A stretch of DNA of 54,344 bases, counting the filler, from Candidatus Zhuqueibacterota bacterium (GTDB taxonomy: Bacteria; BS750m-G25), in assembly GCA_016783505.1 (NCBI GenBank). It is 3 parts of 3 records of this genome, joined end to end, with 100 filler letters (N's around TTAATTAATTAA, not from the genome) between each part and the next. Parts side by side here need not be neighbours in the genome. Positions count along the whole stretch, not along the records: positions 18,400 to 36,559 come from JADHWK010000045.1; 2 more parts are not named here. One strand, given 5' to 3'. Position 1 is the stretch's first letter; every line of letters starts with the position of its first letter. A program made the position numbers and the translations under genes. The notes beneath the pieces are model-generated. The model searched no databases, had not been told where the DNA came from, and saw only the letters and a list, made by a program, of their open reading frames with translations. Of the stretch, positions 19,306 through 39,361 are shown one piece after another.

Positions 19306-19479
19306 ATGTTCAATAACTACAAATACGAAAAACCCGCATTTATCGCGAAAAGGAGCACCGACGCCCTCACAGCAGCATTTGCCGGTGGTGGGTGGTTGCA
19401 TCTAAATGATCCCCATAGATCGGATAAAGCATCGCCTAAATATGATTTGACTGTGAAACGATATGAAAGACGAAATTAA
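19306..19479 (+). CDS. 57-aa peptide with YxxP leader motif; candidate RiPP precursor
   Basis: RBS GGAGGT; MFNNYKYEKPAFIAKRSTDALTAAFAGGGWLHLNDPHRSDKASPKYDLTVKRYERRN; overlaps the ATPase start. Confidence 0.65.
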   Translation: MFNNYKYEKPAFIAKRSTDALTAAFAGGGWLHLNDPHRSDKASPKYDLTVKRYERRN

Positions 19480-20461: not shown

Positions 20462-20468
20462 TGGACAT

Positions 20469-21596: not shown

Positions 21597-21867
21597 AAAC
21601 AATAAGCATAGGAGAATATCCTTCGATCGCCAAGTTCTTATTAGAAAAGCTGGCACAGGACTCTCTTTTGATGCTTACGAAGAGGACAATGATATGCAAG
21701 AAGAATTAATGGAATATTTCAGAGACGCTATTGATCAACAAACAGAAATAATAACACGATATTACGGAAACCTTGATAACACGAAATTGCTGCTCCAGGA
21801 ATCCGTAGTGGGAAGATCCGGACCACATCTGCAGAAGCCGGCCAAACTCATATTGAAGCGTCTTTAA
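21577..21867 (+). CDS. Hypothetical ~96-aa protein coupled to the radical SAM gene
   Basis: Overlaps the radical SAM stop; no recognised motif. Confidence 0.55.
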   Translation: MGEYQDENNKHRRISFDRQVLIRKAGTGLSFDAYEEDNDMQEELMEYFRDAIDQQTEIITRYYGNLDNTKLLLQESVVGRSGPHLQKPAKLILKRL

Positions 21868-21894
21868 AGCTATGGAATCATGAAGGAGGGAAAG

Positions 21895-21996
21895 ATGGTT
21901 AGAAATTTTGCAACAAACATTGGAAGCAACGGAAAGGGAAAGCCGTTCAAGGAGGGCACCGAACCCCCAAAAACAAAAGGTGGAGGCCTGCGATGA
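21895..21996 (+). CDS. 33-aa peptide (not in ORF track)
   Basis: Strong RBS AAGGAGG; MVRNFATNIGSNGKGKPFKEGTEPPKTKGGGLR; ATGA overlap with the next gene. Confidence 0.5.
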   Translation: MVRNFATNIGSNGKGKPFKEGTEPPKTKGGGLR

Positions 21997-23669: not shown

Positions 23670-24598
23670 TATCCTATTTGGTGATGCGGTTTGGTTACTA
23701 CCTCTCCATATTCCTGGGGATCATTGTTTTTTCTTTTCTCCTCTTCCATGTCATACCGTCTGATCCTGCAAGAACCATTTTGGGGCCCAACGCTGATCAA
23801 GCACAGGTTGAACAACTGCGTGAGAAACTGGGGCTTAATGAACCCCTTTATCGCCGGCTGGGTTACTATTTAGTAAATGTGGCTACCCTTAAATTTGGCC
23901 ATTCTTATGTTGACGGCAGAGATGTCTTTATTGAGATTGGCAGGAGATTTAAGGTCACATTGTCTCTGATCACGGTTTCCATGGTAATCGTTTTTGGGTA
24001 TCTGGCTGTTACAATCCTGACATTTCGTTTCTCTTCACTTCAAAGATGGTCCCATGCCATTGATTTCTTGATTTCATCCCTGCCCGTGTTTTTTAGCGGA
24101 ATTATCGGCGCGATATTTGTTCTCTATTTCTATCCGGTCACCTCCTTTTCGGGCAATCTGAACTCAGTAAACGATCTTATTTTTCTAATTCCTCCTGCGC
24201 TGGTTCTTGCCTTTTATCCTATGTCCATTCTGTCGGGGATATTGAAAGAGGAAATGTCTTTTGTCCTGCAGTCCCTCTACATAACAGCGGAGAAATCCTG
24301 GGGGTTTTCAGACATTACGATATTGTTCAAATATGCTTTGAAAAACTCGCTAATTCCCATATTGTCCGCTCTATCAAATATATTGCCAATGCTTCTGACA
24401 GGCGCTTTTATTGTAGAGATCATCTTCTCTGTTCCGGGCATAGGAAGTATTCTGGTAAAGTCAATTCTTGAGCAAGACTTCCCCATGCTCGAATGTACAG
24501 TCATCGTCAATGGGGCCTTTTTTGTGCTCGTAAACCTCGGATTTGAGTATCTGTATCCGCTGCTGGATCCCCGAACAGTTAGAGGAAATAAAATATGA
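23666..24598 (+). CDS. Peptide ABC permease (OppB/DppB)
   Basis: PSDPARTILG..LGLNEP; IVEIIFSVPGIG; YPLLDPR. Confidence 0.9.
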   Translation: MISYLVMRFGYYLSIFLGIIVFSFLLFHVIPSDPARTILGPNADQAQVEQLREKLGLNEPLYRRLGYYLVNVATLKFGHSYVDGRDVFIEIGRRFKVTLSLITVSMVIVFGYLAVTILTFRFSSLQRWSHAIDFLISSLPVFFSGIIGAIFVLYFYPVTSFSGNLNSVNDLIFLIPPALVLAFYPMSILSGILKEEMSFVLQSLYITAEKSWGFSDITILFKYALKNSLIPILSALSNILPMLLTGAFIVEIIFSVPGIGSILVKSILEQDFPMLECTVIVNGAFFVLVNLGFEYLYPLLDPRTVRGNKI

Positions 24599-25410
24599 AT
24601 CGGCAGAGGGGCATCCTCTATTTAATGATCTTTATGGGTATGCTCTGGATTGGAGGGGTCGTTTGTTCTAAGTTTGCACCACATAATCCCTTGGAGATTC
24701 TTCTGTCGGAAAGGCTGACTCCGCCTAATAAAACCTATCTCTGCGGGACGGATGAACTTGGTCGTGATATCTTCAGCAGAATTCTGGTCGGCTTTTCAAA
24801 TACCATGAATGTCTCCATTATGACCCTATTCTCTTCCTTTTTCATAGGGGTATTAATCGGGCCACTTGCCGGTTTTTTTTACAACACGGTCATTGACAGG
24901 CTTTTCAACTGGGTCGCAGCCATGCTCTTTTCCTTACCTTTCTTACTAATCATTACGGCGTTGATGAGTTTGCTGGAAAAGAACCTATTTAACGCGTATG
25001 CAGTGATGACCGCCATTATTTGGGTCAGCCCTGCGCGAATCGTAAGAGCAGGCGTGATTAAAGCAAAATCCGCTACCTTTGTTGTGGCAGAGCGAGCCAT
25101 GGGGAAATCTGAATCCACGATTCTCTTTCGGTCTCTCATACCGATGAGCATCCGACCGGCCTTTATTTTCTCATTCAAGTATTTTCCGGAAATTATAGGC
25201 ATGGAGGCGGGACTTTCATTTCTGGGATTGGGTGTTCAGCCGCCCCACCCAGGCCTGGGCAAAATGATTTTTGACAGTCTAAATTATCTTTATTCAGGCT
25301 GGTGGTATGCATTCTTCCCCGCCTTTTTTCTCTTTGTGATAGTCTTTTTGAGCAATATGGTTTACCGCTGGGTTTCTGGAAGAGCAGCGTACACACGCCA
25401 GGAGGTCTAA
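24595..25410 (+). CDS. Peptide ABC permease (OppC/DppC)
   Basis: GTDELGRDIFSR; EAGLSFLGLGVQPP. Confidence 0.92.
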   Translation: MNRQRGILYLMIFMGMLWIGGVVCSKFAPHNPLEILLSERLTPPNKTYLCGTDELGRDIFSRILVGFSNTMNVSIMTLFSSFFIGVLIGPLAGFFYNTVIDRLFNWVAAMLFSLPFLLIITALMSLLEKNLFNAYAVMTAIIWVSPARIVRAGVIKAKSATFVVAERAMGKSESTILFRSLIPMSIRPAFIFSFKYFPEIIGMEAGLSFLGLGVQPPHPGLGKMIFDSLNYLYSGWWYAFFPAFFLFVIVFLSNMVYRWVSGRAAYTRQEV

Positions 25411-25414
25411 TCCA

Positions 25415-28009
25415 ATGGCAGAATTCTATAATAAATTTTATCGAGAGGAATTCTATGTATTAAGCGACCGTTTACCGAATAAGTTGGCCAAAGACCAATC
25501 ACTTTTCCTAAACACCTTCGATTATCGCAATCGATGTGTAAACTTCAATGCTATTTCACCGGATAAGAGACGGTTCGAAGATGGGATATTTAATGATGGA
25601 TTCATGGAGTTCTGCAAAAAATGGAGCCATTTTGATCACTTTAAGAAGCAGATTAGAGAATTCTATAGAAAAAAAGGTGATAGCTATATCAGTATACTCG
25701 ATGAATTCACATCGAAAGGACAAGCAAACGAGAGTGAAAAAATTAATTTACACTATCACTTAGTTGAACTTTATCACTCCTTTCCAAGTAATCCCGAAAT
25801 GTACCTCGATGGAATACTGAGAAAACTGTCAACTCAATTAGCCAAGAGAAATATTAGATTTAGGTATGCAACCATAGATCTTGTTGAAAAAGAAAAATGT
25901 GACTTCAAAGATTTTCCATGGGTTAAAATGACGTTTTTTGATCCGAATGAACCCAGCGGGGTCATTAAAATAAAAATTGATTCCGAGCGTGAATCCGAGC
26001 CTGGAATAGAAGAGATACTGGCAAGCCAGGAGACTCTCGATATCTTAGAAAATTGCCCACCCCCGAAAGAAACCGAACCGATGAATTCGCGACCCACTAC
26101 CAATACTGATGAACGGTTTAAGCCTCATATCTTGCATAACTACCTTTATCCTCTCTTTTCTAAGAAAAAGAAAGACTTCATTGGAGGTGATTGGTATATT
26201 GACGAACCTCCTAAATCGTTTTTGGTAATGCCTATCTATTCAGCCGATTTTCATGATGGTGATTTTGGCACGATTATTGGCTACTTCTTTTTGCCTTTCA
26301 CATCCAAACAAGATAGAGGAAAATTCTTGAAGAATCACAAAAATGAATTAGATAAGTTATGGCAAACATGGACAACCTTGACACTGCAAACCTTGCTCGA
26401 AGGGAAAAAGCACTTAATCTCAGACCACGATCTCCGGCACGATGATAGTCTTAAAGATTTTCTGGATAGCATAGCTTTTGTGCAGGACTGGGAAAGAGTG
26501 TTGGTTTTCGGCAAGGAAGAAGCGACCGAGCCAGAATACTGCTTTAAAAGATTTAAGGGAGGGAAGGATGGCAAATGGTTGTCCTACGAAGAAGTTTGGG
26601 ATATTTGTAGAAATGGCAAAAAGGGAAAGTGTAATGGATGCATTAAAGGGTTTGGCAACAAATCGGTGAAAGACCTTTTTATGTCAAGTGGAAGAGACCC
26701 CTCACCTAAAAAAATCTATAAGGACTCAACAAATGATAAGTGGTTTTTCTTCCTGTATATGGACCATATTCTTGATCCAAGAGTTTTGCCATCTATCGAA
26801 GAGGCAGATAAGGCAAGATATTCAAATCACATCATTTGTTTTGAGTTTCCAGAATATACCTTCTTCCCCACGGAAATCTGGGAAAATGAGGAAGAGGCAG
26901 TGGAAGAGCTTGGCGATCACTATGTCAAAAAACTCCTTCCGAGTTTTGATAAAGTGATCTTGAAAAGAAGGGTTTTGAAACACAGTATAAAATCCGCAGT
27001 AGCTGCCATTATGAGCCGAAACATGTCTCATAATATTGGGAGCCACATACTTGCCAGGATCAAACTCGAAGAAATTTCTTGGAAGGTTAAGGATGCTCTG
27101 AAGAGAGTCAACGATGATAGGATAACGGATATATGCAACTTGCTCTTTGAGGAATTCCACCAGTATATCCAGAAAAAGAGCGACTTTCTTGCCGAGATCT
27201 CAACAGAACCATATATCTCACCCCGTTCGGCCTTCTTTTATAAGGACGTAATCCTGCCCCTAACAGAGAAGATCCTCCTATTGGACTATATTGCCAGAAA
27301 CGATGGGATAAGGTACGAGCAATTGTCTATAAGGTTTTTTTCAAAGTCCAGGTCAAGAGGCTGCTGTTGTGAATTAGCGCCTGTAAAATACGAAGGAAAA
27401 GAGTGTTCCGAGAATGATAATAAGCCGAAGAAAGTGCCTTTTCATAAGGTATGCCTAGATTGCGCTGCTGAAGAAGGTTACGCAGTTGATGATGTGCGAT
27501 ATTATGTAAATGGTGTTAAGAATTCCAATTATGATGTAATGCTTGATCTACCTGGGAGCGTGGGTGAGTTTGCAATTTATAATATCCTTGAGGCTATCAT
27601 CCGAAATTCTGCAAAGCATAATAGCTCAAAGATAGATAATGGTACTAAGCTTGAGATATCAATCAAGGTGGAAGAAGATGAGGACCCCGCCCTTTACATC
27701 TGCACCGTCTGGGACAATCTCAGCGATGAAGACCTAATAAATAAGATGAATGGGTATATTGAAGAGACAATTGTGGATCAGAAGACTGGAAAGCTAAGGC
27801 CCCAGAACTGGGGTATTGCCGAGATGAAGATCTGTGCCGTACTCTTGCAGGACAGATCCTTCGAGGAGATGGAGAGTGATCCAAGGCGATTTCTTGAGGC
27901 TGTGCAAGTTAGCGGTAACAGGCTTGGATACCGTTTCAAGATCCTGCGGGCAAGGCGGAGCTTGCTCTTGTTAGAAAATACATGGGATAAGCTCTGTAAT
28001 GGAGGTTAA
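25415..28009 (+). CDS. Atypical soluble histidine-kinase-like protein
   Basis: H-box-like AAIMSRNMSHNIGSH; N-box ILEAIIRNSAKH; degenerate G1 (WDN) and G2 (NWGIAEMK); no TM. Confidence 0.7.
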   Translation: MAEFYNKFYREEFYVLSDRLPNKLAKDQSLFLNTFDYRNRCVNFNAISPDKRRFEDGIFNDGFMEFCKKWSHFDHFKKQIREFYRKKGDSYISILDEFTSKGQANESEKINLHYHLVELYHSFPSNPEMYLDGILRKLSTQLAKRNIRFRYATIDLVEKEKCDFKDFPWVKMTFFDPNEPSGVIKIKIDSERESEPGIEEILASQETLDILENCPPPKETEPMNSRPTTNTDERFKPHILHNYLYPLFSKKKKDFIGGDWYIDEPPKSFLVMPIYSADFHDGDFGTIIGYFFLPFTSKQDRGKFLKNHKNELDKLWQTWTTLTLQTLLEGKKHLISDHDLRHDDSLKDFLDSIAFVQDWERVLVFGKEEATEPEYCFKRFKGGKDGKWLSYEEVWDICRNGKKGKCNGCIKGFGNKSVKDLFMSSGRDPSPKKIYKDSTNDKWFFFLYMDHILDPRVLPSIEEADKARYSNHIICFEFPEYTFFPTEIWENEEEAVEELGDHYVKKLLPSFDKVILKRRVLKHSIKSAVAAIMSRNMSHNIGSHILARIKLEEISWKVKDALKRVNDDRITDICNLLFEEFHQYIQKKSDFLAEISTEPYISPRSAFFYKDVILPLTEKILLLDYIARNDGIRYEQLSIRFFSKSRSRGCCCELAPVKYEGKECSENDNKPKKVPFHKVCLDCAAEEGYAVDDVRYYVNGVKNSNYDVMLDLPGSVGEFAIYNILEAIIRNSAKHNSSKIDNGTKLEISIKVEEDEDPALYICTVWDNLSDEDLINKMNGYIEETIVDQKTGKLRPQNWGIAEMKICAVLLQDRSFEEMESDPRRFLEAVQVSGNRLGYRFKILRARRSLLLLENTWDKLCNGG

Positions 28010-29246
28010 GATGAACGGGGTTGAATGGGAAAGGCTTGGATGTTTTCATAAGGAGGATATTGGTGGAGCCGTTGTATCTTTTGGAGGGTATATCCCTTTT
28101 GAACTTGTTATATTTGATACGACCTCTCTTGATCATAGTGCGGTTGAAAAGTTTGCCATTGAAGTGAAAGAAAACCTCCCCTACATGGGGAACAGAATAC
28201 TGATCCTTATAAGGAATAGCGAAATTCCTGCCTCTCTGAATGGTCTGGAAAGGACCTGTGCCATCTGTTGTAAGGACGATGTCTGCAAATCCCTTAATTC
28301 TAAACCACCGGAGCTATGGCCTGGGATACTCCACTACATGTGGTTAAAGGGGATCTCAGGAAGGTCGGACTGGAAAGTCCATATCAACCTGGATGTATGG
28401 GAAAAGGATCGTTTGACTGACCAATGGAAAAACATAGAAAGCAACATCTCCAAATTCCTACCTGGAATTTCTTTGACTGCCCTTCATAAGAAAAGGGAGC
28501 ATGACAAATCAAATGAATCAAATGGAAATAACCCAGACCTCCAAGATCACAGTATCGTATTCGATAGGCACGCTGTATTTTGGTATTCCATGGAATCCTC
28601 CCTTAAGGATTTATCTTTCAAGGGGCACTACGAGGAATGGGGCATAAATTCTCCTTTATATCTTAGCCTATTTAACCCGCCGGAATCTGTGGTTGCTCAA
28701 ATAGACCTTGTTGTAGGTCTCCTTGAGACCTCCTTTTTCAAGATCCTGGTGGTGGATGAACGGATTGGAGAAAAGGCCCTTGACTCTACGTCAGCGAATA
28801 TGGAAAGGTTCAAAATGCTTGCCAATATGGGAGTTTTTATTGTAACCCATGTTGGCGATACCCCCGTTGGCAAAGATATTTCCGAACAGGCATTCAGTCT
28901 CACAATACATAATAATACATTGTCTCTTATGCGGAACGGAAAAGAGTACAAACAGTTCCATTTTCTGGTTATTCACCAAGGAGTCATAGAAAACGAAGAG
29001 GTAAGGGCATTTCTTGAGAAAGGCTTGGGTTTGGATAAGAATTGCTCTCCTGAAGATCTTGTAAGAAAAATATCTCATTATGTTCCGTTTGTGGTAATTG
29101 ACTCCGGGAGGGGTATACCGGCAAATATGCCCCAGAATGCCAAATTCCTCACCTTTTCTGCCCTGCAGGATATGATTCTCAGGAAAAACCCCGCCAAATA
29201 TCAATTAATCCAAATACTTTTAAGACTTACCAGGAGGAAACGATGA
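27999..29246 (+). CDS. Pseudo-receiver-domain protein
   Basis: C-terminal KILVVDER..FLVIHQG..VVIDSGRG, a receiver-like beta1/beta3/beta4 pattern with His at the phospho-Asp position. Confidence 0.55.
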   Translation: MEVKMNGVEWERLGCFHKEDIGGAVVSFGGYIPFELVIFDTTSLDHSAVEKFAIEVKENLPYMGNRILILIRNSEIPASLNGLERTCAICCKDDVCKSLNSKPPELWPGILHYMWLKGISGRSDWKVHINLDVWEKDRLTDQWKNIESNISKFLPGISLTALHKKREHDKSNESNGNNPDLQDHSIVFDRHAVFWYSMESSLKDLSFKGHYEEWGINSPLYLSLFNPPESVVAQIDLVVGLLETSFFKILVVDERIGEKALDSTSANMERFKMLANMGVFIVTHVGDTPVGKDISEQAFSLTIHNNTLSLMRNGKEYKQFHFLVIHQGVIENEEVRAFLEKGLGLDKNCSPEDLVRKISHYVPFVVIDSGRGIPANMPQNAKFLTFSALQDMILRKNPAKYQLIQILLRLTRRKR

Positions 29247-30001
29247 AGATAATATTCTTTTTTACCCACAAAAGATCTGAAATAAGAAACATGGGTGACC
29301 GGGATCCCCCTGGATTTAATGTTGATGATACCTCGTGTCCCATCCAATTGAAATCTAATGGAAGACAAATAGTTTATTATTTCAAAGTTGAATCTAATGT
29401 AGTGAACTGGAAAGAGAAAGTAACGGAGATAATAAATCATTATAATCTCGATTCTGCCGAATCCATCTACTTTTTTCATTATCAAACTATGAAACCTGAA
29501 ACGATTAGGGGCAACCTCAGTCTTCATGGTAAAGTCGTCGAAAAATTTACAAGCAGTGGCGACACGCGAGAGCTTTGGGATCAGATAACGGGAATAAAAT
29601 GTGTTTGTCAAGGTGGGAAAGTAAGTGAACCTCAAGTATTTGAGAAAATATTCGATGAGATATGGAACAGATACAGCGTACGCCCAAGAATTCACCGCCT
29701 CCGCTATGGAATCCTCTCTCCCCTTGTTGCTCTTGACCTGATTAAACAGGCTGAAGTAAATAGCTCGTCGGATAAGAGCACTGACTTGAGTACCCTAAAA
29801 AACGAAATCGAGACAGCTATTGATAATCTTGGTGAGTCAATCAAAGAATTTTGTGAACTTCCAATTAAATGCGATGAGTTCAAGGATCAACTTGAGAAGT
29901 TGAGGAAATATGAAAAATACTCTTCGTGGAAGGATTACCATAAGGAACTTAAAGAAGTTGCTGAAGGAATGGAAGAGCAGATTGCAGCGATTGAATCTTG
30001 A
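29243..30001 (+). CDS. Hypothetical protein (alpha/beta N-terminus, helical C-terminus)
   Basis: ATGA overlap with upstream gene and 4-nt overlap with downstream gene. Confidence 0.7.
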   Translation: MKIIFFFTHKRSEIRNMGDRDPPGFNVDDTSCPIQLKSNGRQIVYYFKVESNVVNWKEKVTEIINHYNLDSAESIYFFHYQTMKPETIRGNLSLHGKVVEKFTSSGDTRELWDQITGIKCVCQGGKVSEPQVFEKIFDEIWNRYSVRPRIHRLRYGILSPLVALDLIKQAEVNSSSDKSTDLSTLKNEIETAIDNLGESIKEFCELPIKCDEFKDQLEKLRKYEKYSSWKDYHKELKEVAEGMEEQIAAIES

Positions 30002-31002
30002 TGAAGCCACTCAGGTTAAATGGGGGAACCGCGATTCAATCCCAGTACGATCTGCCGGATCTACGAGGCAGGCTGAGCAGGCAAGAAGGCACAGTGAAAT
30101 CTATTAGGAGACTGTATCTTGGCATTCACGCTTCAGCCGGCCGCAAAGGATACTCTAACAACCGGGAAAGCATCCTGAATGAGATGATTTCCACCCTTGC
30201 GGATGAGAGCACAAGGATGGGGTTTGCCCTTGCCTGCCCGAGGAGAGTGGCGCCGGATGGAATTTTGTGGATGGCTGATTTGATAAGAAATACGCTCCAC
30301 GCTATTTTCCCTGAAGCGGATAAGCTGGAAATCGTTGATGCTTATAAGGACACAGAAGGCCATGGCACCATGCTGGCCGGGCTTGAGGAGGTGAAGGCAA
30401 AGAGAGCCAAAGGAGGTCTGAGAAGGGCTGTGGTAGTCTATGGATTTGACAGTGACGAGCGGATCAGACAGAACAAGAGCGGCTCTATTTTGGACGCCCC
30501 GGGTGTGTTTTACTTGAGGCTGCCCGCCCTTCTCTCCGATATTAAGAAGGTTTTCGATGAGGCGGCCAATATTCAAGTTATTGAGAACAATGCCATTGAT
30601 GAAAAGAGCTTCAGTGATTATGCCATCCGGGAGATTAGTGCCTTCAAACACCGGTGCGACAATCTATGGATTTCCATGGAGATGAATGCCAACATTGCCA
30701 AGATGGACCTTGATAACTCGCCTGAAACTATGCCAAGCGAGCTTTTTGAATTCAAAACGTCCCATATTGAAAAGCTTTTAGAGGAATACCGTAAACTCGA
30801 TCCAGTAGTGAAGCGACTTGGGATTGCAGATGCTGATAAAGTGACGGGTATGATGGATAAAGTTATTGGTGTAGTAAGACAAATACAGGATAAGAAGACC
30901 TCGCCCCCAAAGGCTTTAAATCTCGCTTTCGTATGCGTAGAAAAAGGGAGGGCTCTTTCAGCTATTCTTGAGAAGGCAAAGGAGTTGAAATATGGCAAGT
31001 AA
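29998..31002 (+). CDS. Hypothetical protein with pseudo-receiver-like module and helical His segment
   Basis: VVVYGF..APGVFYLRLPA..ISAFKHRCDN; the module is shared with 32514..34379. Confidence 0.65.
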   Translation: MMKPLRLNGGTAIQSQYDLPDLRGRLSRQEGTVKSIRRLYLGIHASAGRKGYSNNRESILNEMISTLADESTRMGFALACPRRVAPDGILWMADLIRNTLHAIFPEADKLEIVDAYKDTEGHGTMLAGLEEVKAKRAKGGLRRAVVVYGFDSDERIRQNKSGSILDAPGVFYLRLPALLSDIKKVFDEAANIQVIENNAIDEKSFSDYAIREISAFKHRCDNLWISMEMNANIAKMDLDNSPETMPSELFEFKTSHIEKLLEEYRKLDPVVKRLGIADADKVTGMMDKVIGVVRQIQDKKTSPPKALNLAFVCVEKGRALSAILEKAKELKYGK

Positions 31003-32449
31003 ACGCGTTCTTTTTATAGATGACGATTTTAGACTTTTTGAGAAGGCATTGCGTAAACAATTAGGCAAAGCTGGCTTTGAGATCAGATGCGAGGAAGATC
31101 CTTTCAATGTCCTGAGAGTTATTTCATCTTACCATCCTGATGTCATTCTTCTGGATATCCTCTTCCCCGAAGGCTACTTGGGAAAACCTACCCTCGAAAA
31201 GATCAAGAAAAAACATCCCAACATGCCGGTAATGATGATTACCGGCACCATGGATAAGTCCGAGTACAAATCAGAGCACTATTTGCTGGCCGACTACCGC
31301 TATTCGAAGGAGGCCTTAACAGCAGGGGACTTTTCAGACCTTGCCGCACAACTGAACAGGTTGATTGAAAGGGCAGAGGCTCAGGAACAGGGAGATGAAG
31401 ATAACACTGGGCTGGACAGTTTCGGGTTCATTGTCGGAAAGTCAAAGGCCATGCATGAGGTGGCTGAGATGGTGGAAAAGGTGGCTGATCAGGAACACAC
31501 AGTGCTCATTACCGGTGAATCAGGGACCGGCAAAAAGCTTGTAGCCCGTTCCGTACATGACAAGAGCAGACGTCAGAACCGGAACTTCGTGACTATCGTT
31601 TGCGCGGCCCTATCCAAGGAGCTTCTTGAAAGCGAACTCTTTGGACACGAAAAGGGAGCTTTTACAAGCGCGGTTTCAGATAAGAAAGGTAAGTTCGAGG
31701 TTGCAGGAGATGGGACCATCTTCTTGGATGAGATCGGTGATATGCCCCTTGATACCCAGGTTAAGCTGCTCCGTTTCGTGGAGGAAAGAGAATTCGAAAG
31801 GGTGGGCGGAAATGAGGTCCTGAGGTCCAACGCCCGAATCATTGCCGCCACAAACCAGGACCTTCACGACCTTGTCGCAAAGCGAGACTTCCGAGAAGAC
31901 CTCTTTTTTCGATTGAATGTGCTTTCCATCCATATGCCCCCGCTCAGAGAACGTAAGGAAGACATTCCCGTCTTTTTTGAACATTTTATTAATAAAGCAA
32001 ATGAGGATTCTAGGAAGAAAGTGTTGCCAATCCTTAGAGAGGATGTAAGGTTGATGCTGCTTTCCTATACCTGGCCGGGTAATATTCGTTTGTTTGAAAA
32101 CCTTATCAATCGTGCTGTTGCCATTGCAGATGAGAACATCCTTCAAGTGAATAATTTCCCCGACCTATCCAAAAAAATGGCTCAAGAGAATGGCGTGCCA
32201 TCTGATGTACCCTATATCGTTGATCGGATTTTAAAGGGTGAATTGACCTGGTCCGATATAAGTAAAGAGTTTGGCGCCAAAGGAATGATACGAAAAGAGG
32301 TACTATCACGAACAATAGATCGCTGGGTAAATGAGAATCAACGTCGGCCTTCTTCCGAAGATTTGGGCACATTATTATCGACTACCCCCGGGAATATGCG
32401 ACGCATCCTGTCCGAATGTGGAATTAAGCTGACAGAAATGACGAAGTAG
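30992..32449 (+). CDS. Sigma54-dependent NtrC-family response regulator (REC-AAA+-HTH)
   Basis: IDDD and LLDI receiver; GESGTGK; ESELFGHEKGAFTSA; FLDEIG; WPGNIR. Confidence 0.95.
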   Translation: MASKRVLFIDDDFRLFEKALRKQLGKAGFEIRCEEDPFNVLRVISSYHPDVILLDILFPEGYLGKPTLEKIKKKHPNMPVMMITGTMDKSEYKSEHYLLADYRYSKEALTAGDFSDLAAQLNRLIERAEAQEQGDEDNTGLDSFGFIVGKSKAMHEVAEMVEKVADQEHTVLITGESGTGKKLVARSVHDKSRRQNRNFVTIVCAALSKELLESELFGHEKGAFTSAVSDKKGKFEVAGDGTIFLDEIGDMPLDTQVKLLRFVEEREFERVGGNEVLRSNARIIAATNQDLHDLVAKRDFREDLFFRLNVLSIHMPPLRERKEDIPVFFEHFINKANEDSRKKVLPILREDVRLMLLSYTWPGNIRLFENLINRAVAIADENILQVNNFPDLSKKMAQENGVPSDVPYIVDRILKGELTWSDISKEFGAKGMIRKEVLSRTIDRWVNENQRRPSSEDLGTLLSTTPGNMRRILSECGIKLTEMTK

Positions 32450-32513
32450 ACCTAAGTAGGGCGATTTTAAACTCAAATTTTTTGAACCATACTTCATAAA
32501 TAACAGGTGAAAA

Positions 32514-34379
32514 ATGGCTTTATTAGAAAAAGTCCTGCAGAAACTGTGGCCCAATCTGTCGGCTCATTGGGTCAATGTGGATAGCTTTGGCCCCGATATC
32601 GGCGGACAAATCCTGCAGCTCCGGATGAGACATGAGAATATTGACCCCACCCCGATTATCCTATATGGGTTCAGTCCCTTCGAGAGTCTTGTTCGCTCAG
32701 AAAAAGCGCAACCCGGACTACTAGTGAGCCCTGGAGTCTACCACCTTCACCTTCCAGCAAATTGGGATCGGGTTAAAAGCATTCTTAAAAGAGCCCAAGA
32801 AACTCGCATAGACAGGAAAAAGCTGAAAAGCACGCTGATGAACGACGCTTTAGCTGGCGGTCGGTTGGCACGCATGGAATCCGAACTTGCACATCATATG
32901 GGGAATTTCTTAGGACCTGAGAAGCTGCTTTATGGCGCTCACCTGGCTGAAATGATTGATCATGAGATTTTTCAGAAAATCTTGGCTAAGATACGGGACA
33001 AACAGAAAACCATTTTAGAAAGTCGGAAAGAATACTACCTATATCGACTATCACAGGTTAACTATACACCCAACTGGGTTAACAAAATCTCTGAACCAAA
33101 GGTCACGAGAGGCGAAATCTTATATATTGATGATCACGCTCATCTTGGGTGGGCTTTTGCAGTAGCAGCAGCCTTGTTCGGCAAATTTCGATGCTTTTTC
33201 TCTGTGAAAAAAGCCAAAGAATACAACATGGATATTTTCGCATCTTACTTTGAAAATGGTCCTAGTTTATGCGTGATAAACACTGAAGGTATATCAGCTA
33301 CTGAAAATGCTTATATGGACAAAGCCCTCGCGATTGCAAATGATCACACTTTCATTCAGCGTTTTTCTCTCATTTTGGTTGACCTCCGCTTACGTTGGAA
33401 ACAAGATGAAAACCAGAACATCAAAGATATATCAGGAATGAAGGTCATCCGTAAGATTCGTGATGCCAATGCGGCTATCCCGGTGATTGTACTCACAGCA
33501 TCCCGAAAGGCCAAGAACATGGAGAGGGTGTTGGAATTGGGCGCTGATGGATATTTCATCAAAGAACTCCCTCAACCAAATGAAAAACAAGATGAAATTG
33601 AGGATTATTATCATCGCTTTGTTCAAGTTGTGAAAGAGGCAATAGATAAGTCTTATTTGGCAGAGGCATGGAGGATTGTGAAAAAGCTGGAATTATATGA
33701 ATCTAAAGACTATATAAATTCCAGAATGGATTACAACGAACTTCCAGATGATTTTAAGATAGATTGGCAACAACAGGTGATTAGCCCTTTAAAAAAGGGG
33801 ATCGGTTTTATGCGGAAAGAAAATACTTCTTTTGAACAAGATGCCTTTCAACTGTCTACAATAGCAGAAGCCATCATCAACTTCAATCACCCTAACGACA
33901 CCTTCAAAACCTTAAACGATAATTATAAGGATAGATATAAGAATGAAGTCGATCCACCAATCAGAATTTACCTTAACCCAAATCCCTACCTTTTCAATGG
34001 CCACCTATTGTTGGCGGGCCTACGGAATCTCGCGGCCCATGGTAAACATGAAAAGATCTTTGAAAAAAATGATGGTGAGATTGCCATGTATTTAGGTTTT
34101 AGAGCTCTAATAGGCAAAAAGCATACCGATGCCGTAAACCTGTTAAAGAAGTTAATAACTAAGATATTCCCCCAACATAAAAATCAAAGAATCGATCTTG
34201 AAACAGTAAAAAATGAGGCTACTAATAGAAGAGAACAAGCTGAAACGGATAAAGATCGTCTATATCTTGAATTTTTGGCGGATATAAATACCGAGGAAGG
34301 AAAAAAGCCTCTTGAGCAAGATGAGATTCTTATTTGTGAAATATGCAAGAATCATAACATACCGATAATGCCTTTATGA
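32514..34379 (+). CDS. Response-regulator receiver fused to a HEPN-like domain
   Basis: ILYIDD..LVDLRL..SG..IVLTAS..GADGYFIKE intact receiver; C-terminal helical region with RNLAAH (Rx4H) at 34023-34040. Confidence 0.7.
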   Translation: MALLEKVLQKLWPNLSAHWVNVDSFGPDIGGQILQLRMRHENIDPTPIILYGFSPFESLVRSEKAQPGLLVSPGVYHLHLPANWDRVKSILKRAQETRIDRKKLKSTLMNDALAGGRLARMESELAHHMGNFLGPEKLLYGAHLAEMIDHEIFQKILAKIRDKQKTILESRKEYYLYRLSQVNYTPNWVNKISEPKVTRGEILYIDDHAHLGWAFAVAAALFGKFRCFFSVKKAKEYNMDIFASYFENGPSLCVINTEGISATENAYMDKALAIANDHTFIQRFSLILVDLRLRWKQDENQNIKDISGMKVIRKIRDANAAIPVIVLTASRKAKNMERVLELGADGYFIKELPQPNEKQDEIEDYYHRFVQVVKEAIDKSYLAEAWRIVKKLELYESKDYINSRMDYNELPDDFKIDWQQQVISPLKKGIGFMRKENTSFEQDAFQLSTIAEAIINFNHPNDTFKTLNDNYKDRYKNEVDPPIRIYLNPNPYLFNGHLLLAGLRNLAAHGKHEKIFEKNDGEIAMYLGFRALIGKKHTDAVNLLKKLITKIFPQHKNQRIDLETVKNEATNRREQAETDKDRLYLEFLADINTEEGKKPLEQDEILICEICKNHNIPIMPL

Positions 34380-34561
34380 ATTGTAGAGAAAGCTCATGGA
34401 ACCTATTATAAGGGATGATGTCCAAAATTATTGTGAAAAACCGGTAGTACATTCTTGGGAATTGAAATGGAAAGGCCACATTTTTTGGAGAAACTGAAAA
34501 TTGGAATTGAGGATTGTGGGTAAGGTGGCTCATAAGAATTTCACTTGAGTGAGGATGAAAT

Positions 34562-35533
34562 ATGGGCAAACAAGATCAATATCGTGTGAAGCCTGATACA
34601 GATGTGAGTGTTGTTACCAAGGACTATATTAAGAGAAGGCAGGAGGTTATAAAGGATAGAGGTTTATTCAGGGCCATATATTGGGCTACTCTTGCTCCCG
34701 TTACCATCGGCCTTATTCTATTTATTCCACGAGTTGTGCGTGTTATGTACCGCCCAAATGGAGAAACCTCTCTTTCTACAGACTTGCTGATATTATTAGG
34801 ACTGTTGGCTTTCAGCTTGGGTATGGCGCTTGTGTTAACGGGTATGCTAATTTCCAGCATAACGAGGAACTTGGTCTTAAAGGAGATAAGGACAGAAAAA
34901 TTAGGGCAATACGAGAGGAAGGCAAAAGCTGATACATCGAAAGCTCTTTCAGTACTGGATGAAGCATCCAACGCAGAGAAACAGCTTCCTAAATGTATAG
35001 AATATGCCTCCGAATGGTTAGAACAGGCAAAAAATGAATATAAGGAAAATGCATTTGGTCCCTTTTGGGATAAAGTCGAGGGATCAGCCTTGAATTTGGC
35101 TGCTTTCTATTCCTCGGTTGAACAGATATCTGAAAATGCTCAAGTATACTATGGAACTTTGAAGGGTCGCAAGCACACTTTCCCCCATTTCTCTCCTCGG
35201 CCTGAATCTCTGCCCGATCCTTCTTCCGTAGTTGAAGACTTTAACAGTATTGTGCGAAAGGGGCAAACCAACTTCCAGTTCGCTTCGATATGGGAGCACC
35301 GGAAAACAAGAGAAGTACTAATTGCCGGTTTCAAAACACTGGGCCAGGCGGTTAATAATTTAGGAGCAGCGGTAACAAGTTCATTGTCGAATTTAGAGAG
35401 TTCAATAAGCTCCTTGGAAAGCTCATTTTCATATGAAGCAGGAATGATCAGGGATACAATCGCTGATCAAGTGGGCGAGATCGCCCGAGAACAAGAGAAG
35501 ACAAGGGAGACCTTTGCTGAGTTAAAGAAATAG
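34562..35533 (+). CDS. Two-TM membrane protein with helical/coiled-coil C-terminus
   Basis: Two hydrophobic segments followed by a long helical region. Confidence 0.75.
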   Translation: MGKQDQYRVKPDTDVSVVTKDYIKRRQEVIKDRGLFRAIYWATLAPVTIGLILFIPRVVRVMYRPNGETSLSTDLLILLGLLAFSLGMALVLTGMLISSITRNLVLKEIRTEKLGQYERKAKADTSKALSVLDEASNAEKQLPKCIEYASEWLEQAKNEYKENAFGPFWDKVEGSALNLAAFYSSVEQISENAQVYYGTLKGRKHTFPHFSPRPESLPDPSSVVEDFNSIVRKGQTNFQFASIWEHRKTREVLIAGFKTLGQAVNNLGAAVTSSLSNLESSISSLESSFSYEAGMIRDTIADQVGEIAREQEKTRETFAELKK

Positions 35534-35733
35534 CAAAGAGGCAAATAGCCTCTGAAGTTAATGCACATAAGAAGTAGCCCTGTGTCCTTCCCCCATCCTG
35601 ATAAGACGTCTTGTACCAGGCAGGTAAACCAGCCCTTGATCAACGAGTGGAGGAAAAGCTTCAGTAACTCTTGGCTGTCACTAAAGGTCCTTCTAAAGAA
35701 AAATATGGTTTCCATCGGCTGCGCTCCCCGCCT

Positions 35734-35751
35734 TGTTACCATCTCATAACA
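35734..35751. promoter_or_regulatory. Third copy of the TGTTA-N8-TAACA palindrome
   Basis: TGTTA-CCATCTCA-TAACA. Confidence 0.6.
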
Positions 35752-35936
35752 CCCTATCACCTTAAATGTTATTTTCCAATCGCTGCCGACCTGTATCAGA
35801 GACTTATCTCTCATGAGCAACGTGGGCTTTGTTTGCTTAGGTGAAAGTTTTTTGCGCCTGATTTATATTGTGAAATAGCATAGTTAGGTTTTTCCGGCAG
35901 CCTCCTCATTAAAATACCTGCCATTATGACCGCTGT

Positions 35937-35953
35937 TTGGCATCATTTTCGCA
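35937..35953 (+). promoter_or_regulatory. Second sigma54-like promoter
   Basis: TTGGCATCATTTTCGCA, GG-N10-GC; -12 element is TCGC rather than TTGC. Confidence 0.55.
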
Positions 35954-36031
35954 GCTAACTTTTGCTAAAGAGTTTCAGATAACCCGAAACGGCTAATGGC
36001 AGGCAACCTTTCTTAAAGGAGGGGAGTAGGG

Positions 36032-36226
36032 ATGAAAAAAAGATTCATTAATTGCTTTGCCGTTATGTGTGAAAACCATAACGAACGTCACCGTTTGATT
36101 CTAACACTGAATGAGTTCAAGAGGGCCAAAAGACGGTTCAGTAATGATATAGAAAAAGTCCGTAGAGAGGATATAAGAGATAAAAGAAGACTAACCATTG
36201 ATAATGGGAGGTGCCTGGTTTCGTGA
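36032..36226 (+). CDS. Small hypothetical protein
   Basis: RBS AAGGAGG; 64 aa. Confidence 0.55.
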   Translation: MKKRFINCFAVMCENHNERHRLILTLNEFKRAKRRFSNDIEKVRREDIRDKRRLTIDNGRCLVS

Positions 36227-36270
36227 ACCGATGTCTTTGAAAAATAAACCGATGAAAGGAGGTGAAAACT

Positions 36271-36462
36271 ATGGGTAGATATGAGAAGTATCATAATGTC
36301 GTCTCCGATCCTATTACTAATATCGTTGACGTCCTAACCGGTACGACTACGACGAAGACTGTCATGGTCGATAAGGAAACCGGGAAACGCGCAGAAGCAT
36401 ACGGCAGCAGTTATAAAGAAACCCTCTGTGCCAATGATAGTGAGACACTTCCCCCCCAATAG
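36271..36462 (+). CDS. Small hypothetical protein
   Basis: RBS AAGGAGGT; starts MGRYEKYHNV. Confidence 0.6.
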   Translation: MGRYEKYHNVVSDPITNIVDVLTGTTTTKTVMVDKETGKRAEAYGSSYKETLCANDSETLPPQ

Positions 36463-36492
36463 TTTAGTGTAGGGCGGGAAGGAGAAAAGTTG

Positions 36493-36559
36493 ATGGAAAA
36501 GAAAGAAGTCATGGTTATGAACCTTACACCAAGAGTTGAGGAAATGGAAGGAGCCCGTG
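36493..36559 (+). CDS. Start of ORF truncated by linker
   Basis: RBS AAGGAG; MEKKEVMVMNLTPRVEEMEGAR.. Confidence 0.45.
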
Positions 36560-36659
36560 NNNNNNNNNNNNNNNNNNNNNNNNNNNNNNNNNNNNNNNNN
36601 NNNTTAATTAATTAANNNNNNNNNNNNNNNNNNNNNNNNNNNNNNNNNNNNNNNNNNNN
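36560..36659. other. Artificial contig linker
   Basis: N run containing TTAATTAATTAA. Confidence 0.98.
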
Positions 36660-36893
36660 CACTACATTGATAGAAGGATCACCCTTCAGAAAAAGGTCAA
36701 TGATCTAACGGTAAGTAACAAGAAATTGAAAGACATGCCCCATTCCATAATGGGATCCCTGTCAAAGCTCAGCGAACAAATCGAGAAAATATCGGATCTA
36801 AAGCACGGTATCGAACACGGTTTCATTCAGAGCATGAAACAGTCCATTGCCGATATTTCCGTTATGTTAGCCGAACAAGCTTCAGTGAAATAA
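36660..36893 (+). CDS. C-terminal fragment of a helical/coiled-coil protein
   Basis: Open frame from the linker (HYIDRRITLQKK..EQASVK*). Confidence 0.55.
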   Translation, partial: HYIDRRITLQKKVNDLTVSNKKLKDMPHSIMGSLSKLSEQIEKISDLKHGIEHGFIQSMKQSIADISVMLAEQASVK

Positions 36894-36911
36894 TTGTAAG
36901 ATTTAGCTTTT

Positions 36912-36984
36912 GCGCCAGTAGCTCAGGGGATAGAGCACAGGCCTCCGGAGCCTGGTGTCGTGGGTTCGAATCCCTCCTGGCGTA
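36912..36984 (+). tRNA. tRNA-Arg(CCG)
   Basis: GCGCCAG acceptor stem, anticodon arm CAGGC-CT-CCG-GA-GCCTG, GGTTCGAATCC T-loop; CCA not encoded. Confidence 0.95.
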
Positions 36985-37037
36985 CAAAGATCAAATTAAC
37001 GGACAAGAAATTTAGAGTTAATTTTTACAATGGTGCT

Positions 37038-37241
37038 ATGAAAGTTATAATGGCTCGGCGAGTTCCTCTGTCGAAGATGGACCGGTCGTTTGATTTGAAA
37101 TTTTGGGAAAAGGTAGGTGTGGAGGGAAAATGGGAAGCAGCTTGGGACATGACAATCGAGGTGCAGAGAATCCGGGGTGAAAATGGGGATCAACCAAGAC
37201 TTCAAAGATCTGTTCAGAATATTAAACGAGTTCGGTATTAG
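37038..37241 (+). CDS. Small partner protein of the nucleotidyltransferase (putative TA component)
   Basis: MKVIM..DRSFDLKFW..WEAAW..PRLQRSV; overlaps the NTase gene. Confidence 0.65.
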   Translation: MKVIMARRVPLSKMDRSFDLKFWEKVGVEGKWEAAWDMTIEVQRIRGENGDQPRLQRSVQNIKRVRY

Positions 37242-37641
37242 GTATCTGGTAGTGGGTGCTTATGCGCTCATTTACTACACTGAACCAAGATTTACGAAGG
37301 ATTTGGATATTTGGATTGAACCTTCTCCTGATAATGCGAAAAAAGTATGGCAGGCATTGGTAAAGTACGGTGCTCCGATGATTGATATATCCCCGGAGGA
37401 TTTTTGTAATCCAGAGATCGTTTATCAGATCGGGGTTGAACCAAATCGTATTGATGTAATGATGGATATTGCAGGCGTTGTGTTTGTAGATGCCTGGGTA
37501 AACCGGGTTGAAAGTACTTACGGAGATGAGCAGATTCATTTGATAAGCCTGGACGATCTGATTCGAGCGAAAAGAAAGGCCGGGCGTCTTCAGGACAGAT
37601 TGGATCTGGAACTATTGGAAAAAACAAGAAAGAAGGATTAA
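37183..37641 (+). CDS. Pol-beta-like nucleotidyltransferase (DUF6036-like)
   Basis: YLVVGAYA..PRFTKDLD..LIRAKRKAGRLQDRLDLE. Confidence 0.85.
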   Translation: MGINQDFKDLFRILNEFGIRYLVVGAYALIYYTEPRFTKDLDIWIEPSPDNAKKVWQALVKYGAPMIDISPEDFCNPEIVYQIGVEPNRIDVMMDIAGVVFVDAWVNRVESTYGDEQIHLISLDDLIRAKRKAGRLQDRLDLELLEKTRKKD

Positions 37642-37651
37642 AAATTAACTT

Positions 37652-39361
37652 ATGCGTCTTTCTGAAGGATTTATTCCAACATTAAAAGAAATTCCCAGGG
37701 AGGCTGAGCTTCCCTCCCACCGCCTTATGCTCCGTGCCGGACTAATTAGGATGCTGGCCGCTGGCATCTACAGTTATCTACCCCTTGGTTGGCGGGTGGC
37801 CAAGCGCGTGATTACTATTATCAGGGAAGAGATGGACCGGATCGGTGGTCAGGAAACATTCCTGCCCGCCATTAATCCCCTTGAAGTCTGGCAGGAGACG
37901 GGTAGGGCGGCCGATTTCGGGGATATGATGTTTCAATTCAAGGACAGGCGTGGCCGGGGGATGTGTCTGGCCCCCACCCATGAGGAGGTCATCTGCGACC
38001 TGGCCCGCATTCACATCCGTTCCTACCGGGACCTGCCCCAGATCTGGTATCAGATTCAGACCAAATTCCGGGACGAACCCCGGCCCCGGTCGGGTGTCTT
38101 GCGAGCCAGGCAGTTTATTATGAAAGATTCATACTCATTGGACGCCGTCGAGGAGGGGTTGGATAGGAGTTACCAGCTTCATCGGGAAGCCTACCAGCGA
38201 ATCTTCACCCGGTGCGGTCTGGACTTTATTATCGTTGGGGCATCCAGTGGACTCATGGGGGGGTCGGGTTCCCAGGAATTTATGCTGATTTCGGACAGCG
38301 GAGAGGACACGGTGGTTACCTGCCCCTCGTGCCATTACGCCGCTAACCTGGAGGTGGCTACGTCGGTCAAAGAACAGATGGCCGAGGATGCCTTCTCCGG
38401 GGATACTCAACTGCGGGAAGTCCATACCCCCGGGAAAAGAACCGTCGAAGAAGTCTCTGGATTTTTACATATTCCCAAATCTAAGCTGATCAAATCCCTG
38501 CTGTTTATAGCCGAACAGGGTCCGGTAATGGCCCTCATTTCGGGGGATGATGACTTAAATGAGGCTAAATTGATGACGGCTGTGGGGGCCTTCCGACCCG
38601 CCCATCAGGAAGAGGTGCGACAGATCTGCAAGGCGGAAGCCGGGTTTATCGGTCCCATAGAGCTGGAAGGAGTAACCATCCTGGGGGATCTTACCCTGAC
38701 CAGGACCAAAGGAATGGCCACCGGTGCCAATCGGGACGACTATCACATCGTCGGCATTGACGTGGCCCGGGACGTGCAGGTGGAAAAATTTGTAGACTTA
38801 AGAATCGTTGGCGATGGGGAGGGATGTCCACAATGCGCCCGGCCGCTTAAGGTTATCAACGCCATTGAAATCGGCCACATCTTTAGATTGGGAACCAAAT
38901 ATTCCCAGAGTATGGGAGCTACTTTTCTCGATGAGAAAGGAAGAGAAAACCCCATTATTATGGGGAGCTATGGGATCGGCATTGGCCGCATCATCGCCGC
39001 CGCTATCGAACAAAACCACGATAAAAACGGCATCATCTGGCCCCTGAATATAGCCCCTTACCAAATACATATTCTCTCCCTAAACGCTGATCACCATAAA
39101 TGTCAAACGGTGAGCGAAGATCTCTATCAAATCCTTACCCGGGAGGGTTGGGAATGTCTCTTCGATGACCGAAGACTAAGAGCCGGGGTAAAATTTAAGG
39201 ATGCTGATCTTTTGGGAATGCCCATCCAGATTGTCGTGGGCGAAAAAAACCTGGCGGAAGATAAGGTGGAAATAATATTACGAAAGGACGGTTCTCGGAA
39301 AATTATCGCCATTGACGGAGTGGGGAAAGAGGTTAAAAAAATATTGACTCAAAAGAAATAA
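37652..39361 (+). CDS. proS: Prolyl-tRNA synthetase
   Basis: SHRLMLRAG, PTHEE, FRDEPRPRSG, EIGHIF, GSYGIG. Confidence 0.98.
   Translation: MRLSEGFIPTLKEIPREAELPSHRLMLRAGLIRMLAAGIYSYLPLGWRVAKRVITIIREEMDRIGGQETFLPAINPLEVWQETGRAADFGDMMFQFKDRRGRGMCLAPTHEEVICDLARIHIRSYRDLPQIWYQIQTKFRDEPRPRSGVLRARQFIMKDSYSLDAVEEGLDRSYQLHREAYQRIFTRCGLDFIIVGASSGLMGGSGSQEFMLISDSGEDTVVTCPSCHYAANLEVATSVKEQMAEDAFSGDTQLREVHTPGKRTVEEVSGFLHIPKSKLIKSLLFIAEQGPVMALISGDDDLNEAKLMTAVGAFRPAHQEEVRQICKAEAGFIGPIELEGVTILGDLTLTRTKGMATGANRDDYHIVGIDVARDVQVEKFVDLRIVGDGEGCPQCARPLKVINAIEIGHIFRLGTKYSQSMGATFLDEKGRENPIIMGSYGIGIGRIIAAAIEQNHDKNGIIWPLNIAPYQIHILSLNADHHKCQTVSEDLYQILTREGWECLFDDRRLRAGVKFKDADLLGMPIQIVVGEKNLAEDKVEIILRKDGSRKIIAIDGVGKEVKKILTQKK

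Follow-up and report, generated by a model that had tools for sequence, protein, structure and literature searches.

In textbooks, response regulators act through DNA binding, cyclic-di-GMP turnover, methylesterases and similar outputs. Could a receiver domain also switch a ribonuclease? The question is raised by a gene of Candidatus Zhuqueibacterota bacterium (assembly GCA_016783505.1), hereafter the target, which lies on the plus strand at 32514..34379 of the window, i.e., the whole stretch of 54,344 nucleotides (nt) that was analyzed. The window joins three parts of three records with filler between them; positions 18,400 to 36,559 derive from JADHWK010000045.1, and parts side by side in it need not be neighbors in the genome. 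A preliminary description had proposed that the target is a phosphorylatable receiver fused to a HEPN-like RNase motif. Our analysis supports that proposal in part: the receiver and the motif were upheld, whereas similarity to a HEPN fold was not. We lean toward the interpretation that the target is the effector response regulator of a conflict-type two-component operon and would act as a phospho-gated HEPN-type RNase.

The AlphaFold2 model of the whole target, based on a 42-row alignment, is a confident single body (predicted local distance difference test [pLDDT], 90.1; predicted template modeling score [pTM], 0.89) of four modules, namely, a three-stranded alpha/beta domain (residues 1 to 96), linker helices (101 to 180), a receiver (198 to 356), and a helical domain (359 to 621). 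We are highly confident of this architecture and of the family placement described below. A Shine-Dalgarno-like AGGTGA located 6 to 11 nt 5' of the ATG is a plausible ribosome-binding site, and each of the strings quoted in the preliminary description occurs at one position of the protein (IDD, 205; DLRL, 290; TAS, 328; IKE, 349; LRNLAAHG, 503). The features of the target are as follows (aa, amino acids).

32514..34379, plus strand: target gene, 621 aa, ATG start
32514..32801, plus strand: N-terminal degenerate receiver (iREC-like), residues 1 to 96, from the model and hhalign
32814..33053, plus strand: helical linker, residues 101 to 180, four helices in the model
32892-32894, plus strand: codon of H127 of the linker motif, from the alignment
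33105..33581, plus strand: REC domain, residues 198 to 356, from Pfam PF00072, column counts, and Foldseek
33381-33383, plus strand: codon of the phospho-acceptor D290, from the alignment and the model strand
33588..34376, plus strand: all-helical C-terminal domain, residues 359 to 621, from the AlphaFold2 model, 12 helices
33897..33899, plus strand: D462, candidate HEPN helix-2 acidic residue, from the alignment column and the model
34023..34040, plus strand: R504-N-L-A-A-H509, candidate HEPN Rx4-6H catalytic motif, from conservation and helix position

The receiver and the helical C-terminal domain

Of 8000 candidates scored in a word-indexed search, 14 proteins reached E ≤ 1e-3, and an exhaustive phmmer search of a library clustered at 50% returned 1081 representatives at E ≤ 1e-3, including 177 at E ≤ 1e-10 and 15 at E ≤ 1e-30. 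A family alignment of 150 rows was made from 157 proteins, with five fragments and two proteins longer than 1000 aa left out; counts out of 150 refer to this alignment throughout.

Pfam Response_reg (PF00072) matched the target at 36.6 bits (cut-off, 30.2) over residues 302 to 353, i.e., profile positions 51 to 102 only, and this restriction to the second half of the receiver fits a divergent first half. The same model matched all 81 distant relatives and all 18 clade members at E ≤ 0.01; for the target, NCBIfam gave only receiver matches below cut-off and PADLOC gave no match. More specifically, the acidic pair D206/D207 is present in 148 of 150 sequences, D290 and K350 in all 150, and position 328 is threonine in 144 and serine in the other 6. 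In the AlphaFold2 model, the receiver strands (201-205, 226-228, 286-290, 324-328, and 346-349) alternate with helices, and the positions of the phosphotransfer residues D206/D207, D290, T328, and K350 fit these strands. Consistently, comparison of the whole target model with the PDB by Foldseek gave 26 matches at E ≤ 1e-3 (PorX, NarL, PmrA, and others), and every match listed is a receiver-containing protein or construct; these response-regulator matches confirm the receiver fold. The phosphotransfer residues within the strings that the preliminary description had called intact (IDD, DLRL, TAS, and IKE) are kept in 144 to 150 of the 150 sequences, and judging from them the receiver looks intact and phosphorylatable.

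About 80 residues separate strand 1 (201-205) from the phospho-Asp strand (286-290), and the corresponding stretch in CheY is about 45 residues long. The long insert between beta1 and beta3 that had been described here is real, because the model contains an extra hairpin (243-246 and 251-255) along with a low-confidence loop (232-234), but it had been overstated, because normal helix and strand elements make up part of the stretch.

A separate AlphaFold2 model of residues 355 to 621 (pLDDT, 93.7; pTM, 0.91) contains 12 helices, with a proposed HEPN core at about 418 to 533 and a clade-specific extension at about 538 to 613. The helical domain that had been described around LRNLAAHG is thus present as stated: residues 359 to 621 are all-helical, and the string begins at 503. 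When the target was shuffled (n = 20,000), R-x4-H occurred in 65% and RN-x3-H in 6.5% of the shuffles, so that the presence of the motif is not by itself significant; the R...H motif stands above chance because it is conserved. Conservation of R and H in homologs had been set beforehand as a check on the preliminary description, and it was found at each depth of sampling: neither R504 nor H509 varies among the 14 close homologs or among the 42 sequences of the wider alignment, and both occur together in 141 of the 150 family representatives, six of the nine misses being gaps in truncated rows. Column by column, R504 is kept in 141, N505 in 118, and H509 in 143 of the 150. Among the 141 sequences with both residues, the spacer between them is 4 residues long in 113, 5 in 20, and 6 in 8, and the residue after R is N in 117, S in 7, and H in 5.

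According to the available part of PMC3710099, HEPN domains are characterized by (i) an Rx4-6H motif in which R is usually followed by N, D, or H; (ii) placement of this motif where core helix 3 ends and the loop to helix 4 begins; and (iii) frequent inserts between helices 2 and 3, together with conservation of an acidic position in helix 2. The model of the target presents a long helix (449-474), a loop of about 20 residues (475-495), a helix (496-509) with R504...H509 at its C-terminal end, a further loop (510-517), and a further helix (518-533). D462 lies within helix 449-474, and its column is acidic in 137 of 150 sequences (E in 124, D in 13); we infer from the secondary structure of the predicted model that this helix corresponds to HEPN helix 2. 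As modeled, the motif placement, the polar residue, the spacer, and the acidic residue match the HEPN description in that portion of PMC3710099, and the only family-wide invariants of the C-terminal domain, namely, the acidic residue and R-[N]-x3-5-H, are placed in the prediction as in HEPN ribonucleases. The earlier identification of RN-x3-H as a HEPN motif accordingly agrees, in spacing, polar residue, and position at a helix end, with the Rx4-6H pattern set out in the part of PMC3710099 at hand.

Further observations concern this region. Among 26 relatives, three sub-threshold Pfam HEPN matches were obtained, each over the motif region and each to a different family (P0129, RiboL-PSP, E = 1.1e-4; P0134, MAE_28990, E = 0.0024; P0073, Apea, E = 0.0082), and P0007, one of the close homologs, has a cold-shock nucleic-acid-binding domain at its C-terminus (E = 4.6e-12).

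Similarity searches, taken together, count against a HEPN assignment. The fold comparison had likewise been named as a check, and here the model with pLDDT 93.7 found no significant match in the PDB or BFVD. More specifically, when the 267-residue C-terminal model, about 130 residues of which are non-core, was compared with the PDB by Foldseek, no match reached E ≤ 0.001 (best, 0.46), and the HEPN chains 1wwp_A, 7ae6_A, and 7ae8_A appeared at ranks 19, 26, and 27 with E values of about 1.6 to 1.7, i.e., as noise; against BFVD there was likewise no match at E ≤ 0.001 (best, 0.42). A phmmer search of the C-terminus against the PDB gave 0 matches, and a profile of six Bacteroidota C-termini yielded nothing but a spurious repeat-based match to the neck of a C-type lectin. 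No Pfam HEPN model matched the target or reached threshold on any family member; at E ≤ 0.01, such matches were found in 1 of 81 relatives and in none of 8 isolated C-termini or 18 clade members. In addition, residue 505 is not invariant among the close homologs (N, A, or S, with A or S in several), and none of 71 candidates was a shorter stand-alone homolog of residues 395 to 621.

Two further analyses counted neither for nor against: the ESM Atlas search with residues 395 to 621 was uninformative (best score, 0.80, to unnamed clusters), and the prediction of a C-terminal homodimer scored 0.00 against a mark of 0.42. A seven-sequence MAFFT alignment that included the C-terminus of the window protein was dropped, as the motif was misplaced in it.

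We term the C-terminal domain HEPN-like because its motif and local topology agree with the HEPN description and the similarity searches gave no significant match. The fusion of a receiver to a HEPN-type domain is, on sequence grounds, well supported by conservation and unproven by fold. We consider it probable that the domain carries out RNase chemistry; the labels HEPN fold, toxin, and phospho-gated are ones that we infer for the target.

Family placement and the N-terminal half

The C-terminus of the target clade and that of a clade of relatives of about 560 aa are homologous by hhalign (97.2%, E = 3.2e-11), and in the extended alignment LRNLAAH of the target falls on RN..H of the other clade. 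After the 15 rows shorter than 480 aa had been removed from the 150, a FastTree phylogeny of the other 135 placed 24 target-like proteins together on one side of a branch (Shimodaira-Hasegawa-like support, 97). A median of 170 residues follows the motif His in the target clade, versus 39 in the other clades. The target is a variant of a large family that has been catalogued computationally, and in the literature searched we found no experimental work on this family.

The first 200 residues, comprising an iREC-like domain and a conserved linker, and the operon context are additions to the preliminary description. Residues 1 to 96 alternate between strands and helices in the AlphaFold2 model and contain only three strands; by our reading of the model, a conserved YGF (51-53) fills the strand position where a phospho-Asp would sit. 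Pfam iREC (PF22563) gave no match to the target itself at E ≤ 0.1; it matched the N-terminus of 50 of 81 distant relatives and was sub-threshold in 2 of 18 clade members. By hhalign, the N-terminus of the target clade aligned with that of the iREC-bearing clade at 97.7% probability (E = 1.6e-12). The linker contains a near-invariant motif, H127-x3-N131-x2-G134 (H127 in 144, N131 in 143, and G134 in 136 of 150), which was also aligned when the linkers of the two clades were compared (81%, E = 1.2e-5). This motif (window 32892-32915, residues 127 to 134) equals the receiver and HEPN-like residues in conservation, and in the 42-row alignment H127, N131, R504, and H509 are the only invariant residues outside the receiver.

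A profile search of genome contigs found 12 loci, all with distant relatives and none of the close clade. On Bacteroidota contigs, the relatives of about 560 aa come after two genes, the first for an RVT_1 plus HisKin-conflict (PF22561) protein and the second for a protein of about 225 aa; their 3' neighbors encode a superfamily 1 (SF1) helicase with TBP-TOTE and a TPR-DUF7017-S1CSD-TOTE protein. A Chryseobacterium oryzae plasmid has the same gene order, beside type I restriction and PIN genes, and there the relative is annotated just as 'response regulator'.

Two relatives are disrupted. At L003 9512-11559, the iREC-REC gene (380 aa) extends only through the receiver and is followed by a gene for a DDE transposase; at L002 9081-10909, the gene is in two pieces, one with the iREC (310 aa) and one with the receiver end and the C-terminal part (284 aa). 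The proteins of about 225 aa (L001 8521-9201, L006 2519-3223, L005 599-1270, L004 383-991, and L013 8086-8727) share a receiver-like pattern, IYLFDD ... ILxHxSF ... VxFSGG, with an invariant His in the place of the phospho-Asp.

The operon and its candidate kinase

The target lies in a cluster of genes that are all on the plus strand, with ends that overlap or nearly abut and a tightly overlapping chain from 25415 to 32449. The genes are as follows (ABC, ATP-binding cassette; ORF, open reading frame).

21993-25410, plus strand: ABC transporter genes (peptide/nickel-type), directly 5' of the cluster
25415..28009, plus strand: 864-aa protein, variable N-terminal part and a histidine-kinase-like part at about 500 to 852, candidate cognate kinase
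27999..29246, plus strand: 415-aa ORF, C-terminal portion of the kinase-like family as a separate cistron
29243..30001, plus strand: 252-aa protein, no family match in Pfam, NCBIfam, or PADLOC, overlaps both neighbors by 4 nt
29998..31002, plus strand: 334-aa paralog of the target N-terminal half, from hhalign
30992..32449, plus strand: NtrC-type sigma-54 activator, REC plus AAA+, from Pfam, second receiver protein of the operon
34562..35533, plus strand: 323-aa protein, no family match in Pfam, NCBIfam, or PADLOC, 3' of the target

The region of residues 480 to 864 of the 864-aa protein has 857 relatives, which form a family that lacks Pfam coverage and carries varied N-terminal enzymatic domains. 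In the ESM Atlas, the first named cluster for this protein was HisKin-conflict PF22561 (0.91; 193 of 256 features), followed by HATPase_c, and its own model resembles HisKA plus HATPase_c kinases with a TM score of about 0.5. Other searches gave no support: the protein had no Pfam, NCBIfam, or PADLOC match, a profile of its family gave 0 matches in the PDB, and BLASTP against two HisKin-conflict proteins was not significant (E = 0.23 and 0.87). We treat the kinase assignment as a lead only, resting on language-model and predicted-structure likeness.

The region corresponding to the 415-aa ORF is fused at the C-terminus in 94 of 119 kinase-family homologs, which are single proteins of 1000 to 1300 aa; in P0161, for example, it occupies residues 863 to 1289, directly after the kinase part. 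At the junction in the window, GGAGG (28001-28005) is followed by the TAA of the upstream gene (28007-28009) and an ATG (28011), and from this arrangement the split appears to be natural, with a separate ribosome-binding site for the second cistron, and not the product of a frameshift in sequencing.

The N-termini of the kinase-family homologs include S-adenosylmethionine (SAM) methyltransferases (P0174, P0176, and P0207), a GNAT acetyltransferase (P0169), DNA methylase PF01555 (P0212 and P0218), and radical SAM domains (P0223 and P0259). A radical SAM gene also lies 5' in the window, at 20328-21596. P0008, a target homolog, and P0180, a kinase-family homolog, each list a longest contig of 47,386 bases, a hint that the two families may lie together on a further contig. 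By eye, the C-terminus of the 415-aa protein resembles the pattern of the proteins of about 225 aa (VVDER ... VIHQG ... DSGRG). That the 415-aa and 252-aa proteins are equivalent to those proteins was rejected as unsupported (hhalign, 0.5%, 0.2%, and 0.3%; versus REC, 1%).

The two genes between the 252-aa gene and the target encode further receiver-like modules. Residues 94 to 224 of the 334-aa protein aligned with residues 2 to 134 of the target (hhalign, 95.4%, E = 1.8e-8), so that this paralog comprises the iREC-like domain and the first part of the linker with its H-x3-N (KHRCDNLW), and lacks the receiver and the HEPN-like domain. The sigma-54 activator matched Pfam Sigma54_activat at E = 1.1e-68 and Response_reg at E = 8e-11; its best NCBIfam match was ntrC (343.8 bits, below cut-off), and PADLOC RtcR_PspF2 matched its AAA part.

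These modules bear on a different reading of the target, in which the C-terminal domain is no nuclease, H509 and/or H127 serve in phosphotransfer or regulation, and the target is a relay or scaffold in a phosphorelay. In its favor are two histidines at separate sites that are nearly invariant (H127, 144 of 150; H509, 143 of 150), several receiver-like modules in one operon (the iREC paralog and the NtrC-type REC), and the absence of a significant HEPN match by fold or profile. The target motif differs, however, from the HPt and HisKA histidine patterns, which read H-x-x-K-G and H-E-x-x-T-P, respectively; P0007, with its fused cold-shock domain, suggests a link to nucleic acid; and R-[N]-x3-5-H with its 4-to-6 spacing and upstream acidic residue is the HEPN signature as given in the available text of PMC3710099. 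We regard the relay reading as distinctly improbable and retain the candidate RNase as the preferred one.

If the target is an RNase, its role may still be other than defensive. Weighing against a defense setting, PADLOC found no defense model over the cluster except the RtcR-type match to the AAA part of the sigma-54 activator, and the cluster abuts an ABC transporter operon rather than recognizable defense genes. Among window genes 11013-41400, none encodes TBP-TOTE, S1CSD-TOTE, DUF7017, helicase, or RVT_1, and BLASTP of the window neighbors against the ORFs of the distant loci revealed no TOTE component. A housekeeping or regulatory RNase acting on specific transcripts (those of the ABC transporter or of a sigma-54 regulon), rather than a toxin or defense effector, would suit the PADLOC result as well as three further facts: the kinase-like gene (25415) starts 5 nt past the stop of the ABC permease gene (24595-25410), an NtrC-type activator lies within the operon, and the window ORFs that were scanned revealed neither an integrase nor a transposase. 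Set against this are the occurrence of distant family members in defense-type operons and islands, the swapped N-terminal enzymatic domains of the kinase-family homologs, a pattern that appears typical of conflict systems, and the patchy distribution of the target family. We judge a housekeeping role unlikely and keep the conflict-type effector as our working interpretation.

A third possibility concerns the switch itself, namely, that the receiver responds to a nucleotide or small molecule rather than to a kinase, with the HEPN-like domain still serving as output. Kinase-independent, ligand-responsive receivers have been proposed for defense systems in the available portions of PMC8195603 and PMC11229360, and a gene for a cyclic-phosphate-processing receiver lies near the Chryseobacterium relative. 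Yet all five phosphotransfer residues are kept in 144 to 150 of 150 sequences, and a kinase or kinase-like gene precedes the target in the window and its relatives in the distant operons (HisKin-conflict). Ligand control in place of phosphorylation is, in our estimation, very improbable, and we continue with a kinase-switched receiver.

Sigma-54 promoter patterns were at chance level over the window (35 matches versus 36.2 expected), as were sigma-70 promoters and terminators in 24500-37700, with no terminator between the genes of the chain. The only exact TGGCAC-N5-TTGC is at 20422-20436, within the overlap of ORFs 19463-20461 and 20328-21596, and a site with one mismatch lies at 18994-19008, 5' of 19463. 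Hydrophobic stretches read by eye from the sequence suggest membrane segments in the 323-aa protein. A tRNA-Arg (CCG) gene is found at 36912-36985, 1.4 kb 3' of the cluster in the window; the overlapping ORF 36960-37241 probably does not represent a gene. A DUF2204 nucleotidyltransferase-family protein (37177-37641), encoded just before prolyl-tRNA synthetase, may be a minimal remnant of a nucleotidyltransferase-type toxin-antitoxin system.

Known systems and the proposed mechanism

The closest described counterparts of the target are the iREC-REC regulators found beside RT-HisKin-conflict kinases (PF22563, PF22561; RT, reverse transcriptase) in TOTE (TPR, OB, TBP, Effector) systems, which are attributed to Aravind, Iyer & Burroughs 2022 in the available part of bioRxiv 10.1101/2025.09.15.676423. 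The target is homologous to these regulators over all four modules (hhalign, 97.7% for the N-terminal domain, 81% for the linker, and 97.2% for the C-terminal domain; REC by phmmer), has the same invariant residues, and like them lies downstream of a kinase or kinase-like gene. Unlike the TOTE loci, its operon lacks the RT, TBP-helicase, and TPR-S1/CSD genes (window genes 11013-41400) and instead contains a different, split kinase family, the iREC paralog, and the sigma-54 activator; the target also belongs to a clade separate from the TOTE-associated relatives, with a longer C-terminal extension.

In Csm6/Csx1 (CARF-HEPN), RNase L, and Ire1 (KEN), HEPN sites are paired in response to a signal and then cleave RNA independently of metal, and Ire1 is the phosphorylation-dependent example of the HEPN type. 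The target too combines an N-terminal switch with a helical domain that has an acidic residue and Rx4-6H; its switch, in contrast, is a two-component receiver predicted to be phosphorylated on Asp, and it has no significant sequence or fold match to the HEPN families of those proteins. In PorX (REC-PglZ phosphodiesterase) and EutV (REC-ANTAR), too, the output under receiver control is not a DNA-binding domain. They are among the best structural matches of the whole target model (PorX, E = 6e-5), and the likeness is confined to the receiver, with TM scores normalized by query of 0.13 to 0.17 and output domains unrelated to that of the target. In the literature searched, we found no description of a receiver-HEPN fusion, the Aravind, Iyer & Burroughs 2022 review lying outside that search; more specifically, such a fusion is not described in the available parts of PMC11090510, PMC3710099, PMC8195603, PMC13092281, PMC7159879, PMC12839542, and PMC11229360.

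Based on these comparisons, we propose the following mechanism. The kinase-like protein encoded in two cistrons (25415-28009 and 27999-29246) would sense an input through its variable N-terminal part, autophosphorylate, and pass the phosphoryl group to D290 of the target. A conformational change of the receiver, or receiver-mediated dimerization, would then release the HEPN-like domains or, more probably and as in other HEPN RNases, pair two copies of them, thereby activating the R/N/H site, and RNA would be cut without metal, leading to growth arrest, an abortive-infection-type defense, or selective RNA turnover. The same kinase would in parallel phosphorylate the NtrC-type sigma-54 activator and thereby open a transcriptional branch. 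Only tentatively do we suggest the full scheme, in which one kinase would have two outputs (the sigma-54 activator and an Asp-phosphorylation-activated HEPN RNase), with the linker motif and the iREC paralog as a relay or inhibitory step.

The family already has domain models for the inactive receiver and, in one branch, for the kinase. A receiver-switched RNase would add to two-component signaling a direct post-transcriptional, and possibly suicidal, output. The operon in the window, with its sigma-54 branch and iREC paralog, would offer a compact case of a kinase signal split between transcription and RNA cleavage. If the scheme is true, this dual-output pathway would be a prokaryotic counterpart of the Ire1 and RNase L logic, built on a receiver domain, and the linker H-x3-N-x2-G together with the iREC paralog could constitute an extra relay or inhibitory step with no described equivalent.

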